Source: Terriglobia bacterium
Lineage (GTDB): Bacteria; Acidobacteriota; Terriglobia; 20CM-2-55-15
Direction of reading: 5' to 3'
Assembly: GCA_963664115.2 (NCBI GenBank)
Contig: CAXWPJ010000009.1
Coordinates: 1,229,898 to 1,293,897, forward strand
DNA: 64,000 nucleotides
Shown: positions 1-61,279 of the stretch, one piece after another
Position numbering within the stretch: the first letter of the stretch is position 1
Layout of the letters: the number at the start of each line of letters is the position of its first letter
Notes under the pieces: model-generated
What the model was told of the DNA's origin: nothing
Seen by the model: only the letters and a program-made list of their open reading frames with translations
Database searches by the model: none
Made by a program: the position numbers and the translations under genes

Positions 1-574
1 GAAAGAGCGTTCGGTAAACGTCGACGCTACGATAGATCGCATGGTACTCGCCCTCTCTGTGCTCGTAACCGTTCGCAACGGTAGTCTCCCGTAAAACGAC
101 TCGCCCCCGATCACCGAGGCGTTCGATAACTGCTTGAACGAGCGCGATCGTGTCAGCGTCGCTCAGGTACATGCAGATTCCTCCTAAAAAGACGAGATCA
201 AATGGCCCCGGCGGCAATGGCTCTCGAACGTCCTGGTTCAGAAGCTCCACGTTCGACCGGTCCGTGAGCTTCTTTTTTGCAGCGACCAGCATCGCAGGGC
301 TCTGTTCAATCCCAATGACGCTGCCGAAGCGCTGAGCGAAGAACTCGGTCCAGGTCCCCGACCCACAGCCCAAGTCAAGTACACGTGCTTGCGGCCCCCC
401 GACATCGAGCCAGTCGCGTATCGCTCGGCGTTCCTTCTGGAAGCGATAACGAACAGCGTTTTCGGGCAAGTCTTGTGCGTGGGCCATGTAGCTCGCACAA
501 GCCGCCGTGTCGGGGCCAGCTTGAGCAAAGTAGCGCCTAACCTCCCGGTAGTCGATCTGGTATTTGCCACTCAT
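1..574 (-). CDS. Class I SAM-dependent methyltransferase (3' end runs off the window; absent from the ORF track)
   Basis: Manual translation from ATG at 574: MSGKYQIDY...RVLDLGCGSGTW (motif I)...VIGIEQSPAML...PFDLVFLGG; no stop before base 1. Confidence 0.8.
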   Translation of the reverse strand, partial: MSGKYQIDYREVRRYFAQAGPDTAACASYMAHAQDLPENAVRYRFQKERRAIRDWLDVGGPQARVLDLGCGSGTWTEFFAQRFGSVIGIEQSPAMLVAAKKKLTDRSNVELLNQDVREPLPPGPFDLVFLGGICMYLSDADTIALVQAVIERLGDRGRVVLRETTVANGYEHREGEYHAIYRSVDVYRTLF

Positions 575-699
575 GTTCTGTCGCGCACCTTTTACGCGAT
601 AGGCACCACAAACTACGTTTCAGCAGTCCGGTCGGTGTCGCTGGGCCTCGCTCTCGGCCCCCGCTGGTCAACTCATGCGGACTTAAACCGCCGCATTCG

Positions 700-800
700 T
701 TGTCAAAGTAGATTTTCGCGGGCTTTCCACACCTCGTCCATGACTCCTTACTTATTGCGGAGAGGATCTCGTAGCAGCCGAGTCGGGTGCCAGGGGGCAT
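700..800 (-). pseudogene. Ser/Thr protein kinase 5' stub
   Basis: MPPGTRLGCYEILSAISK, then after a frameshift VMDEVWKAREN; matches the N-terminus of the kinase at 61352. Confidence 0.7.
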
Positions 801-875
801 GATTCAGCGTGGACTGTTCTGAGCGGCGCAAACTCACTAAATGATATGTAAATAAGGGGTTAGAAGCAAATAGAG

Positions 876-915
876 TCTCAAGTCCTGAGAAACGACCTTG
901 TCGGACACTGAGAAT
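876..915. repeat. Palindromic repeat copy R1
   Basis: TCTCA-a-GTCC-tGAGAAacgaccTTgTC-GGAC-ac-TGAGAat; homologous to 1022, 4326/5812, 49172 and 61241. Confidence 0.75.
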
Positions 916-1021
916 AGGCGAGCTTCGAGTGTCGCAGTAATTCATTGAAACAATGAGAGATATAGCTCGTTAGCGACCAATCGAGGAAGGGCAGGCGAGA
1001 GGAGGATTTCCGTTCGGTGAA

Positions 1022-1063
1022 ATTCTCAATGTCCGCGAAGATGATTTATCGGGACCTGAGAAT
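1022..1063. repeat. Palindromic repeat copy R2 (empty IS1111 target)
   Basis: ATTCTCA-at-GTCC-gcgaagatgatttatcg-GGAC-c-TGAGAAT. Confidence 0.8.
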
Positions 1064-1107
1064 CGTTTTTAAGGCAGGGCTCAAGAAAATTCGATGGCCG
1101 CCGGCTG

Positions 1108-1895: not shown

Positions 1896-2754
1896 TTAAC
1901 CGAGGCGCGAAAGATAGGTCTCCGGTCCATCCTCCGGCCGGCACAAGACCTCTTCGATTTGATCGACCGTCTGACGCTTGAAGGTGACCGTCGGCGTCTC
2001 CCAGGGTATCGTCAGCGAGTTCTCATCTTCTGCCCTCGCCTGATACTCGAGCGTGTCGGCATCGATGCGACGCCACCGCTCGACGACGTGCATCGCGTCA
2101 GAGGTCAACCACACGCCCGTGCTGGCGTTCGTCGGCCTATCCTCGGGGCTCGCCAGCCATCCTTCACCGTTGAATGAAACCACGTCGACCACGAGCGTGT
2201 CCCCTTCCCACACTGCCGTTGAGTCGCCCATGTAAGTGGGATACAAATACTGCTCCGCGGTGTGCGGCCTTCCGGTCGTTGGAATGATCCGGTAGACCGG
2301 GTACGCCTCGGTGAGCACGAATGCGAATCCGGGGCTCTGAATAATCTGGATTGGGTGCCCCAGCATCGCGGCGCGCGGAAAAGCGGGAGGAGCGCAGCAG
2401 GGTTGGGCAGCGAGAGTTCCTCCATCCAGGGTTCCGGTCGTTGGAATGATCCGGTAGACCGGGCGGGTCATCCTCCGCCGAGAGTTCCTCCATCCGAGCG
2501 CGCGCGGCGGGCGTGTACAGTCCCTCGAGCGTCGCCAGATCAAACGTATCGCGTCCGGAACTAGCGCCAAGGGGCGGCGCCCTCCAGACACCAGCTAGAT
2601 CTGGCTCTCCCCACTCGGTCCGCGCCGAAAACGAACCGGTACCTGTCGAGGCGCTGTCGTTCGCGCCGTTCTCGTCCATCACTAGTCGCAGGCCGAGCAG
2701 CACGGCAGCTCCAACGACCAAGCCAATGCCAATAGTCATCGCACGTCCGCTCAT
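1896..2754 (-). pseudogene. Exported hypothetical protein (RTxWGxPDLxGxW...WEGDTLVV family), frameshifted by short internal duplications
   Basis: N-terminal half (MSGRAMTIG...ARTEWGEPDLAGVW) and C-terminal half (YMGDSTAVWEGDTLVVDV) lie in different frames; 2270-2301 is repeated at 2432-2463. Confidence 0.65.
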
Positions 2755-4028
2755 TGGACACCCCCGTCGAGGGTTCAACGGCGGGCGCACCCGACGCCTC
2801 CCTCTCTGCTTGCTGGACGGCGAACTCCCGGTGTCGCGCGTCCAACTCGGGATCCGGGAAGCAGAGTGACTCAAAGAGCGTGTCGTACGGCATGAGGCCC
2901 CGGCGAACGACCGATCCGGTCCATGGAGCCGTGAGCATTTTCGAGTCTTCAACGACCACGCTGTATTCAATGATCTGCGCGTCCGGCCGACTCCAGCGCT
3001 CGACGATGCGCAATGCGTCCGAGGAGGTTTGCGGCAGCTGATCCGGCGGCCGAGCTGGCCAAGCCAGGGCTTGCCGTTGAAGTTCAGGGTCACCTCCACG
3101 ACCAGCGTGTCGCCCTCCCAATGACCGACCGACGAGCCTTGAAAGGAAGGCTTGTGCGACGCACTCGGTTGGGGTTCGTTCTCGCCAACGATTGGGATGA
3201 TCCGGAAGTAGTCACCGCCCTCGTTGAGCATCAGGAGGTATCCCGGGGCTGACACCAGTTGGATGGTTCCGGCGCCGAGCCCGAGCGCGGCCAGCAGTGA
3301 TAGTTGGGGGTATCGATGCCTTGCCAATCGATCAGGCCGACCGCGGCACCTCCGCCCTCTCTGTATTCGCGCACCTCCGGACGGTACAGCGACTCCAGCG
3401 GAACCGGGGGCCGCAGCCAATAGACGCCCTGGGCCAAGCCAAAATCCACGACCAGCGTGTCGCCCTCCCAATGACCGACCGACGAGCCTTGAAAGGAAGG
3501 CTTGTGCGACGCACTCGGTTGGGGTTCGTTCTCGCCAACGATTGGGTGATCCGGAAGTGGCCCTCGTTGAGCATCAGGAGGTATCCCGGGGCTGACACCA
3601 GTTGGATGGTTCCGGCCGCCGATCAGTGAGTTGGGGGTATCGATGCCTTGCCAATCGATCAGGCCGACCGCGGCACCTCCGCCCTCTCTGTATTCGCGCA
3701 CCTCCGGACGGTACAGCGACTCCAGCGGAACCGGGGGCCGCGTGACTGTCGCGTCGGGCCAATAGACGCCCGAAAAATCCGGTTTCCCGTCCCACGACGT
3801 GCGTGGCACTGGATATTGCACAGGATCAGATTCGTACGCAACGAGACGCCCTCTCGCCTCGGAGCGAGTCTCCACGCCTTCAGGGAGGAGTTCTACAATC
3901 CGCTCTGTCCAGTCCGCGCCCGCCCCCGCCGCCTGTGGCGGGGTATAGGGCTCTATCTGAGCCGATGCGCGAAAAGCACCGAGGGCCACAAGCAGCGCCA
4001 TTACGGCGATTCCGGAACGAGTCAGCAT
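2751..4028 (-). pseudogene. Exported hypothetical protein of the same family, broken by a ~350-bp tandem duplication and frameshifts
   Basis: Signal peptide, PRTSWDGKPDFSGVYW, GHWEGDTLVV present twice; 3095-3447 is similar to 3445-3780. Confidence 0.65.
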
Positions 4029-4225: not shown

Positions 4226-4468
4226 AAAATAGTGTGTGCCGAATCGAAAAGCGAAAATGTTGAATAAATCTAACTACAGGTGGGGGTTATAAGCAAGGAA
4301 GTTGTGAGCCCGTGGGCCTCGCCTAATTCTCAACGTCCGAGAAGATGATTTATTGATGGTATGGACTCCTCTTTGATGACTGAGTCGGCATCGAAGTGCC
4401 AAAGTCATTTTGAGCCTCGCAATAAAGCGGGCGAAACACGTGTACGTGTGAACAAAAAGGAGTCCGAG

Positions 4469-5503
4469 ATGAAGAATAGAACGATAGCAGTGGATCTGGC
4501 AAAGAATGTTTTTCAAATTGGTGTTTCAGATCGCCCCGGGCATGTAGAGAAAACCTATCGTTTAAGTCGGGCAAAGTTTCTGGGGTTCTTTGCGAACCAG
4601 GAGCTGGCGACCGTGGTGATGGAAGCCTGCGGATCCGCCCATTACTGGGGTCGGAAGATCCGGGAACTGGGACACACGGTCGTTCTGATCTCGCCGCAGT
4701 ATGTGACGCCCTACGTCAGGCGCAACAAGACCGACCGTACGGATGTGAAAGGATTGTTGGAAGCCTATCGTGACAGCGATATTCATCCAGTGCCGGTCAA
4801 AACCCTGGCCCAACAGCAACTGACCTCATTGCATCGAATCCGTTCGGCGTGGATGCGAACCCGAACCGCACGGATCAATACGGTGCGGGGGTTGTTACGG
4901 GAGTTTGGCTACGTGATCCCGACCGGAGCGGATCATCTGGTGCCGGGGGTAATGGAGCTGATCGAAGATGCAGATGTCGTCATCCCCAGTGTCGTTCGGG
5001 AGATGTTTCACCAGGTGTGTGGCGAGATCCGTGAATTGGAATCTCGCATGCGATCGGTGGAACAAGAGTTGAAGACGCTGGCTCGGCAGATGCCTGAGGT
5101 CGCGCGTCTGACGTCGATTCCCGGCATCGGCCTGTTAACGGCAACGGCAATGGTGGGGTTTGTTGGAAACATCAAACGATTCCGAACGTCCCGCCATTTT
5201 GCCAGTTATCTGGGACTCACACCCCGGGAACATTCCAGTGGCAACCAGCGACGCATGGGCCGGATCAGTAAGCAAGGCGATCGTTACCTCCGGATGCTGT
5301 TGGTTCATGGGGGCCGTTCCCTGTTGTGGAGTGCCCATCGAGAGGGCGCCACACCGACACCTCTCCAGCAATGGGGTCTCCAGAAACACGAGTTCCGCGG
5401 ACACAACAAGGCAATCGTTGCACTGGCCAACAAGTTGGCGCGTCGCGTGTGGGCGGTTTGGAACCGTGACTGTGACCATCAGGCCCGGTATCAGGCGGCC
5501 TGA
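4469..5503 (+). CDS. IS110-family DEDD transposase/recombinase
   Basis: RBS AAGGAG; VDLAK, MEAC, KTDRTD (DEDD), IPGIG, GLTPREHSSG, ALANKLAR. Confidence 0.95.
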   Translation: MKNRTIAVDLAKNVFQIGVSDRPGHVEKTYRLSRAKFLGFFANQELATVVMEACGSAHYWGRKIRELGHTVVLISPQYVTPYVRRNKTDRTDVKGLLEAYRDSDIHPVPVKTLAQQQLTSLHRIRSAWMRTRTARINTVRGLLREFGYVIPTGADHLVPGVMELIEDADVVIPSVVREMFHQVCGEIRELESRMRSVEQELKTLARQMPEVARLTSIPGIGLLTATAMVGFVGNIKRFRTSRHFASYLGLTPREHSSGNQRRMGRISKQGDRYLRMLLVHGGRSLLWSAHREGATPTPLQQWGLQKHEFRGHNKAIVALANKLARRVWAVWNRDCDHQARYQAA

Positions 5504-5796
5504 CCCGGAACAGTCGGAATATCTTTTCAGCGAGCTGCGATGAGGTTCGAGATGATGGCGTACCGGTCAGACCGGCGCGGGGCAACGCCGACAAGTCCTT
5601 TGGCCCTTAGAGGCCGTTATTTTATCGGTTGGCTCCCCGCGCGCAAATTTCCATCATGGCCTGGAACAATACAGTTCCACTTTTGAGGCCGAAGATACGG
5701 GTGCAGTCGACTAGCTACTCACCTCGTAACTTCTAGTCAGTCCTGCTGAATGCATTTTGCCGAAGAAAGCTGACGGGAGAGCTGCGCCTACTTGAC
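5504..5796 (+). ncRNA. Putative bridge/seek RNA of the IS1111 element
   Basis: Nested stems GCGCGGGG/CCCCGCGC, GCCGAC/GTTGGC and GGCC/GGCC; the internal-loop strands (CAAGTCC, TTTATCGG) match the two strands of the target; exact RNA ends unknown. Confidence 0.7.
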
Positions 5797-5834
5797 AGAG
5801 GAGTCCAGATACGGGACTTGACCTCATTCTTTGG

Positions 5835-60575: not shown

Positions 60576-61179
60576 CATAGAATGTGCTAAGCGAAGAGTC
60601 CGTGCGACGATCGCCGGCTCCAAGATCCCGGAAGATCCCCGCCATGCAGAAAACACGCTGGAGTGGCTGTTAAGGCTTGATCCCAAGGCCGGGCAGGCGT
60701 TGCAGATCGCCGCTCTCAGTCATGATATTGATCGGGCTATAGAGGACCGAAAAGTGCGGCGCGGCGATTTCGGTGACTATGACGCATTCAAGGCCGCTCA
60801 TGCACGCAACGGGGCAAGGATTCTGCGAACCATCCTGGACGAATGCGGTGTCGATCAGCCCACCAAGGACGAGGCATGTCGGTTGGTAATACGTCATGAA
60901 GTCGGAGGTGATCTGAGTTCGGATCTCCTTAAAGACGCAGATAGTATTTCTTTTTTCGACATCAATGTGCCTTTCTACTACCAACGCGAAGGGTGGGAGG
61001 AAACCAAACGACGCTGCATTTGGGGATATCGCCGTCTCTCAGTCCGGGTGAAAGAACTCGCAAATGGCATCACGTTTGAAGATGACACGCTGACACGGTT
61101 GTTAGCGGAGGCAATGCGAGAATTTGATCTGAAGGCAAAACCCGGCAGACTGCCCGTTCAAGATCGGAGACCGGGTTGA
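60568..61179 (+). CDS. HD-superfamily/DUF4202-like protein
   Basis: HA...SHDIDRA...H...HE...LKDADS; overlaps the upstream stop by 8 nt. Confidence 0.7.
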   Translation: MNSIECAKRRVRATIAGSKIPEDPRHAENTLEWLLRLDPKAGQALQIAALSHDIDRAIEDRKVRRGDFGDYDAFKAAHARNGARILRTILDECGVDQPTKDEACRLVIRHEVGGDLSSDLLKDADSISFFDINVPFYYQREGWEETKRRCIWGYRRLSVRVKELANGITFEDDTLTRLLAEAMREFDLKAKPGRLPVQDRRPG

Positions 61180-61240
61180 GGCAGTTCAAGACTAGTTTGA
61201 AGAACTGAATGAGCGCGTGCCGGTTCCCTGATTTTGAAGG

Positions 61241-61279
61241 TCGAGTCCTGAGAAATCATCTTCTCGGACCTTGAGAATT
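61241..61279. repeat. Palindromic repeat copy R5
   Basis: TCGAGTCCTGAGAAATCATCTTCTCGGACCTTGAGAATT, ~70 bp upstream of the kinase ATG. Confidence 0.8.

Follow-up and report, generated by a model that had tools for sequence, protein, structure and literature searches.

An IS1111-group element with a predicted guide RNA, inserted in a dif-like intergenic repeat of a bacterial genome

Results

Structure of the element and its insertion site

Analysis of the whole 64-kb stretch of DNA (the window) revealed a complete, intact IS1111-group element of 1458 bp at positions 4354-5811, inserted in a copy of a short, roughly inverted repeat (Table 1). Removal of 4354-5811 restored the repeat copy, as the preliminary description of this DNA had proposed, and the strings on which that description was built (CAAGTCC at 5592-5598, TTTATCGG at 5621-5628, CCATCAT at 5651-5657, AGATA at 5693-5697, and ATGATGG at 5552-5558) were all confirmed. 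The transposase combined a DEDD RuvC domain (PF01548) with a PF02371 domain carrying the GL-P----SG motif, had a length within the 330-350 residues of the group, and scored 317 bits on NF033542 (cut-off 140). The nearest named transposases were ISKpn4 (46.5% identity) and ISPa62 (48%). The sub-terminal inverted repeats of 12 bases, 11 of which matched, were located 7 nt from the left end and 3 nt from the right end, and target duplication was absent. A 3-nt right extension is a feature of the IS1111 group and was also seen in the homologs here. The 7-nt left spacing was shared by the 64 homologs with definable ends (from the best 80 of 483 confirmed stretches), consistent with the 7-bp left-extension rule given for IS1111 elements in the available part of PMC11187229. 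A long non-coding region followed the transposase gene on its 3' side, in which the top-strand match preceded the bottom-strand match, the order that the same part of that paper ascribes to IS1111 elements (PMC11187229). Judged from its sequence, the element has the domains, ends, and non-coding region of the IS1111 group and is a new member of it.

The genome (4.89 Mb, 12 contigs) contained six full copies of the element and several partial or interrupted ones. For copies with an identity of 96% or more, seven of the eight left junctions and all nine right junctions lay in one repeat, at the same base and in the same orientation, after the fourth base of the right arm. Independent copies thus shared site and orientation, as in the IS1111 group, and the expectation in the preliminary description that other copies would have the same repeat in their flanks was borne out. 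All seven left junctions in the repeat read TTTAT, compared with 34 of the 176 empty sites (p about 3e-5 if the copies are independent). The exception, copy C3, was bounded on the left by a gene ending in TCTAT, which we take to be IS256-like, and on the right by the repeat; because of these two different neighbours the copy was considered off-target or rearranged. The full 14-bp target was matched at 32 places genome-wide, 22 of them in listed repeats. As for the empty copies described previously in the window, both existed and a third was found at 873-916 on the minus strand, but the phrase "several empty targets" was too generous, because TTTAT occurred only in the copy at 1021-1064, together with a mismatch to the right guide, and the copies ending at 916 and 61279 read TTTCT. 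Two further repeat copies were irregular. The copy at about 108700 of G000 C1 (L156) read GATGATACGGGACTTGA, a short form resembling the right junction without the element and a possible excision scar, and the copy at C10:410668 was one base short.

Table 1. Positions of the element, its predicted RNA and the repeat copies in the window, with the IS91-like copies of the genome
Feature	Position	Strand	Evidence
Target repeat, left part, with outer bases, left arm of 11 bp (ACGTCCGAGAA), GATGAT spacer of 6 bp, and first 4 right-arm bases	4325-4353	+	
Left end, with the 7-nt extension TGATGGT ahead of the sub-terminal inverted repeat (4361-4372)	4354-4372	+	sequence; same ends in other copies
IS110-family transposase/recombinase, 344 aa; D9, E52, D89, D92; GL-P----SG motif at residues 249-258	4469-5503	+	
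Predicted bridge/seek RNA scaffold	5549-5712	+	covariance model from 34 homologs
Domain for target binding, with an outer helix (5575-5582/5635-5642), an inner stem (5587-5592/5628-5633), and a GGCC hairpin (5602-5615)	5575-5642	+	
Right target guide CAAGTCCT, complement of top-strand (A/G)GGACTTG	5592-5599	+	
Left target guide TTTATCG, identical to top strand TTTAT^C(A/G)	5621-5627	+	
Candidate right donor guide CCATCAT; may pair instead or also with TGATGG 5553-5558	5651-5657	+	
Left donor guide AGATAC, matches right end AGATA and core C	5693-5698	+	
Predicted -35 box TTGACA, facing outward; joining of the ends would place it 17 bp from TGGTAT, which follows a TG-n	5792-5797	+	
Right sub-terminal inverted repeat (5797-5808) and 3-nt extension ATA	5797-5811	+	
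Right part of the target repeat CGGGACTTGA	5812-5821	+	
Empty copy with the TTTAT variant and spacer GATGAT; one base mismatched with the right guide	1021-1064	+	
Empty copy with the TTTCT variant and spacer GGTCGT; back-to-back with the copy at 1021	873-916	-	
Empty copy with the TTTCT variant; one kinase-like frame ends on one side of it and a second starts on the other	61236-61279	-	
Six IS91-like copies (G000)	C1:92926, C1:108595, C2:196451, C12:36270, C12:159118, C12:486987		

Guide RNA scaffold

A covariance model built from 34 homologs, with the window excluded, matched 5549-5712 with 96 bits (E 7e-25), and the same model also matched the non-coding region of ISKpn4 (65.5 bits). The consensus structure, including the TGATGG helix, contained 26 pairs with 91.7% of cells paired, and 22 of the pairs had two-sided changes; in slid controls only 27-41% of cells were paired. 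The main conserved helix was formed by GCGCGGGG (5575-5582) and CCCCGCGC (5635-5642) and was absent from the preliminary description, while C5592 and G5628 were also part of the GCCGAC/GTTGGC stem given there. Folding of the non-coding region, proposed as a check, gave an energy no better than that of shuffled sequences (z -0.69; second run z -1.03), so the RNA structure rests on covariation and not on energy. A scan of the 64-kb window at the Rfam gathering thresholds gave no match. Related RNA regions also survived as remnants that lack a transposase and have altered target loops, at C12:18693-18906, C7:45107-45295, and C9:77531-77622 of G000.

Covariation of guides and targets

Eighty homolog loci with 37-49% identity, the best 80 of 483 confirmed stretches, were collected; 64 had definable ends, and 16 were dropped because the ends or the flank could not be defined. 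Thinning at 80% identity left 38 loci, in which each RNA window was scored against the flanks of each element and the cognate and non-cognate means were compared in 5000 permutations. The right target guide, the complement of AGGACTTG, which is the usual right flank, scored 7.1 with cognate and 3.8 with non-cognate flanks; the corresponding means were 6.5 and 3.5 for the left target guide and 5.8 and 3.8 for the left donor guide, with 0 of 5000 permutations in each case (n=38). Swapped-window controls were null. In this kind of test, which relatedness inflates, no other target outscored the cognate one in 28, 30, and 33 of the 38 loci for the right target, left target, and left donor guides, respectively. 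By sequence comparison, both target guides and the left donor guide thus tracked their own flanks in 38 distant relatives. For the candidate right donor guide CCATCAT, the comparison did not reach significance (633 of 5000 permutations, n=38), since the guide and the left end both hardly vary, and its competing helix with TGATGG (5553-5558) was paired in 83.6% of cells, so the earlier doubt that CCATCAT may pair internally stands. The loops described previously were retained as target guides, but their limits were better supported as CAAGTCCT at 5592-5599 and TTTATCG at 5621-5627; in the donor loop, the left guide AGATA was upheld by covariation and the right one was not.

Two positions at the ends were followed across the 64 homologs with definable ends (from the best 80 of 483). 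The base at column 5694 corresponded to the end base in 63 of 64 (T or C), and in the window element this pair was G:G. The first left-end base was the same as the first right-flank base in 56 of 64 of these distant homologs.

Natural reprogramming in close relatives

Close relatives with transposases 75-93% identical were found in five related genomes. The elements L096 and L105 carried the guide TTTCTC at the target TTTCT, and L092 carried TTTAAC at TTTAA; close relatives thus showed single-base swaps of guide and target. A sister element in G002, with the guides CAACGTCCG and TTTCTC, occupied the mirror position in the left arm, from the opposite strand, at all 11 of its right junctions and at 8 of its 11 left ones. 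The element copies of G007, with the guides ACATGTCC and CCATCC, were inserted outside the repeat at sites like ACCACC^CGGACATGT, and a third target was in use in L107 and L111 of G001. Imperfect pairs were also present: L101 had the guide TTTGTC on the target TTTAT, with wobble pairing only, and L091 had a mismatched right flank. The covariation among homologs (0 of 5000 permutations) and the single-base swaps together supported the RNA-guided reading in the preliminary description, and this part of the explanation is very probably correct.

In the clade of the element, the first left-end base was T in every left end examined, both left guides carried C, and most right flanks began with C (G in L095, L098, L103, and L099). 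Since the left guides and the right junction have C, the first left-end T appears to travel with the element and not to belong to a shared core.

Expression and the circle junction

The stretch was contained in 20 public runs, and the named ones were sponge metagenomes. Two metatranscriptome contigs spanned the RNA region with 0-1 differences at a depth of 2.5-4.3; they were unstranded, covered the transposase too, and carried no information on strand, level, or ends. In one of four RNA runs the share was small. The circle junction was not seen in four other runs, which were kept as contigs, a form that drops rare sequences. The perfect TTGACA box and TGGTAT would be brought together at this junction and may function as a promoter, by analogy with the ISEc11 junction promoter in the available part of PMC11187229.

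Shape and distribution of the repeat

A profile search identified 181 sites in the genome (176 empty and 5 occupied left halves) and none in the reversed genome. The core of the repeat consisted of two roughly inverted 11-bp arms and a 6-bp spacer (11-6-11). The spacer was GATGAT in 134 of the 176 empty sites, TGTCGT in 12, and GGTCGT in 8; in other lineages the arms were kept and the spacers differed. According to a crude in-house gene caller, 179 of the 181 repeats were intergenic. Neighbouring repeats 0.2-8 kb apart were on the same strand in 86 of 112 pairs, and the genes between repeats were mixed in orientation (115 opposite, 73 same). With a stricter pattern, the source genome had 127 sites and four members of the genus had 86, 42, 8, and 0; two further genomes had one each, and the remaining 34 had none. 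The pattern was found in no viral contig.

The geometry of the repeat was that of a Xer site, with two 11-bp arms around a poorly conserved 6-8-bp centre. The left arm matched the XerC arms of two published acidobacterial dif sites, taken from the available part of the supplement of PMC3025954, at means of 8.7/11 and 8.1/11, and that of the genome's own dif at 6.9/11; the chance of a match of at least 9/11 to a dif arm was 1.2e-4 per position. In line with this likeness, the host is probably an acidobacterium. The right arm matched XerD arms at 5.0-5.9/11 (5.0/11 for the genome's own XerD arm) and was not XerD-like. One separate canonical dif was present in the genome at about C2:108110-108145 (minus), close to the GC-skew switch near 100 kb, and each of five relatives likewise had one canonical dif. 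Because of the weak XerD arm and the separate canonical dif, the repeat was classed as dif-like and not, by the tests used, as a member of the dif family. The single repeat copy of G007 was considered as the chromosomal dif and rejected, with the canonical dif of G007 138 kb away; skew sampling of 20 stretches was too noisy.

The attC sites of integrons have R'' and R' boxes with conserved AAC/GTT around two L boxes, and the integrase gene lies beside the array. In the repeat, position 10 varied among C, T, and G and 26 bp separated the outer boxes, so the candidate that the repeat is an attC served by the integron integrase was rejected; the organization of an attC or integron array was not found, and the integrase was 196 kb from the nearest repeat. 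The host genes for XerC and XerD (G000 C9:863207 and C2:150455) and for the integron integrase were all present above the cut-off. The integrase gene (G000 C9:714590-715873) had no array of the repeat and no simple attC match from about 15 kb upstream to 20 kb downstream.

The repeat as a boundary of shuffled blocks

Among low-copy duplicated blocks, 43 of 444 ends fell in a repeat, compared with 2-5 after shifting; for 38 of the 43, both partners did so. Of the repeat pairs sharing at least 150 nt, 24 of 37 shared one side only. Variant positions placed the crossovers within repeat positions 10-35 and no finer, which did not pinpoint the spacer, and one 1284-bp block broke the spacer rule at both ends. 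Two different spacer classes were combined in all 12 back-to-back repeat pairs. These comparisons suggest that the repeat acts as a recombination boundary.

A second type of element was joined to the same repeat. IS91-like elements that encode both a tyrosine recombinase (PF00589, PF13495) and a Y2 transposase (PF04986) started exactly at the spacer edge in 5 cases from three genomes (C12, C3, L192, L193, and L194). IS91-linked recombinase genes of G000 include those at C12:569262 and C1:92926. In L192 and L193, from G002, an intact right arm followed the element, with CGTTTG shared; in the C12 case the right arm was short of about 5 bp, and in C3 and L194 a right arm was looked for and not found. 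In seven further families of multi-copy elements, with between 72 and 4 copies, 0-2 copies per family ended near a repeat. Tyrosine recombinases linked to IS91 have been placed in an integron-like subgroup, according to the available part of 10.1101/542381. We consider it probable that the repeat is the site of a separate tyrosine recombinase.

Six identical IS91-like copies started at degenerate arm-plus-six-base sites about 27-34 bp from the repeat (5 clear, 1 degenerate). Distance, orientation, and flanks varied, and the reading in which these copies carry the repeat as a constant internal segment was therefore rejected. In genomes without arrays, IS91-like elements also began at degenerate sites. 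An attC-like hairpin (CTTCAAAC box ... GTT) closed the IS91-like elements at G000 C12:568084-570200 and C3:2939-5400, the six copies, L192, and L193. The missing partner box of this hairpin was the left end of the IS91-like element itself, and the circle of such an element would therefore resemble a self-mobile integron cassette.

Discussion

The findings are likely explained by an intact IS1111 element that is guided by the predicted RNA at 5549-5712 to the repeat, itself likely a tyrosine-recombinase site. By extension from ISEc11, ISKpn4, and IS621, the element would excise as a circle, with a promoter created at the AGATA^TGATGG junction, and the RNA would be transcribed and bound by the transposase. 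To the right of the cut, CAAGUCCU would pair with the top strand, and to the left, UUUAUCG would pair with the bottom strand; the DEDD and serine domains would exchange strands with target duplication absent. Intergenic recombination sites would offer the element many harmless landing places, and each entered site would probably be inactivated by it.

Alternative explanations

The preliminary description had compared the repeat with REP sequences, and a related explanation accepts the RNA-guided element but takes the repeat to be a REP-like hairpin spread by an HUH enzyme (RAYT or Y2), with blocks swapped by homologous recombination of the 34-44-bp copies. In REP/RAYT systems the hairpin is held by compensatory change, and the RAYT gene is flanked by several copies. 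The repeat consensus can form a hairpin with bulges, and the intergenic position (179/181), the abundance in one genus only, and crossovers spread over positions 10-35 would all suit such a hairpin; two Y1 transposase frames are present, one about 300 bp from a repeat, and REPs are the targets of IS621 and ISPa11 in the available parts of PMC11187229 and PMC11208160. However, the variable stem pair 17/28 showed no compensatory change (G-C 57, C-C 34, G-A 32, G-G 24), and only one repeat was near the Y1 genes. The resemblance of the left arm to published dif arms, the Y-recombinase elements joined at the spacer edge, and the mixed spacer classes in 12 of 12 back-to-back pairs also argue against a hairpin of this kind, which we consider unlikely. 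The comparison with REPs was thus not sustained, as the repeat looks and acts like a recombinase site.

Protein contact was also weighed, in which the repeat would be a double operator bound by a host protein near kinase and secreted-protein genes, and the element would be drawn by that protein, as proposed for the IS1202 family at Xer sites. Kinase-like motifs near repeats (69/181 C-terminal, 15 N-terminal) and the targeting of xrs by ISAba32-type elements beyond sequence alone (10.1101/2022.12.17.520857, available part) are compatible with an operator. Nevertheless, single-base guide changes follow target changes, relatives with other guides leave the repeat, and the block ends in the repeat would be left unexplained; a protein-drawn element is very improbable. 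That the shuffling signal is an assembly artefact, with only the element and the repeat real, is more improbable still: short internal duplications do occur in the window and in element tails, but the shared blocks are mutually 93-100% identical while their repeats carry differing variants, similar arrays are present in G002 and G003, and G002 has the same spacer-edge integrations.

Comparison with known systems

An RNA-guided element at a likely tyrosine-recombinase site has a close parallel in ISKpn4, an IS1111-attC element with a characterised seekRNA and the same guide order (PMC11187229, available part), whose target attC is also a tyrosine-recombinase site. Compared with ISKpn4 and ISPa62, the target here is a 28-34-bp 11-6-11 palindrome instead of attC, the guides are unrelated, and the first left-end base differs from the guide core base. 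In the available parts of PMC11187229 and PMC11208160, ISEc11, ISPa11 (seekRNA), and IS621 (bridge RNA) share the DEDD and serine transposase without target duplication, and ISPa11 and IS621 share a repeated palindromic target. In IS621, however, the RNA is upstream and the guide order reversed, and similarity to the window transposase is weak (E 3e-11). The known IS1111 targets listed in the available part of PMC11187229 are attC, REP, and transposon ends. The element is thus of a known kind, and the target is the new part.

The ISAba32 group of the IS1202 family also seeks dif-like 11-6-11 Xer sites, but with a DDE transposase that inserts 5 bp beside the site with duplication, and sequence alone was insufficient to explain its targeting of xrs (10.1101/2022.12.17.520857, available part); the insertion point of the window element lies within an arm, at the base that its guide specifies. 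Dif-like extra sites in arrays likewise bound mobile gene blocks in Acinetobacter pdif modules and chromosomal dif-module islands (available part of PMC12907356). The host of the window element has about 180 sites, mostly direct, whereas pdif cassettes are flanked by inverted sites (available part of 10.1101/2022.12.17.520857), and the right arm of the repeat departs from the XerD consensus. Integron arrays resemble the present one in having same-strand repeats between small gene blocks and in the integron-like subgroup of the IS91-linked recombinases, but the repeat is too short for attC and has no fixed GTT, gene orientation is mixed, and the integrase is distant. A literature search, with subscription journals and ISfinder mostly outside its scope, turned up neither an IS110/IS1111 element on a dif-like site nor an array of this kind.

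We tentatively suggest, at somewhat less than an even chance, that the genus carries an undescribed chromosomal cassette system in which about 50-180 dif-like sites, mostly direct, are recombined by a tyrosine recombinase (XerC-type or IS91-type integron-like) that shuffles kinase-derived and secreted-protein blocks. An IS1111 clade would have been reprogrammed base by base onto both arms and their variants, and its members would be the first RNA-guided elements on dif-like sites. If the target is a tyrosine-recombinase site, an uncultured lineage would possess a platform for gene shuffling that resembles an integron but lacks attC, and a role would be suggested for the recombinases of certain IS91-type elements, which are so far unexplained. 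The close relatives also constitute a natural reprogramming series, with 75-93% identical transposases, single-base guide differences, and targets known from many copies. The cut position is described differently in the available parts of the seekRNA and bridge RNA papers (PMC11187229, PMC11208160). This series, and a lineage whose left-end base disagrees with the core base of its guides, can be used to test the IS1111 cut position and the tolerance of mismatches.

Genes near the repeats

A kinase C-terminal-like motif was located just past the right arm, within 120 nt, in 69 of 181 repeats, and a kinase N-terminal-like motif within 330 nt in 15 of 181. Kinase N-terminal stubs were fused to unrelated frames, and many cassettes looked like kinase cassettes that had been emptied or refilled. 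In the window, kinase stretches near repeats were found at 537-800 (minus), at 61160-61240, and from 61353 onward. A cluster of 58 probably secreted proteins, G000 C2:333461-335044 and 57 relatives, was also found near repeats, and its longest member had no Pfam match. The reading frames at 1896-4028 (minus) of the window contained internal repeats of 30-40 residues and frameshifts, which may be due to assembly error or local recombination, and the frame at 1432-1944 corresponded to DUF6152.
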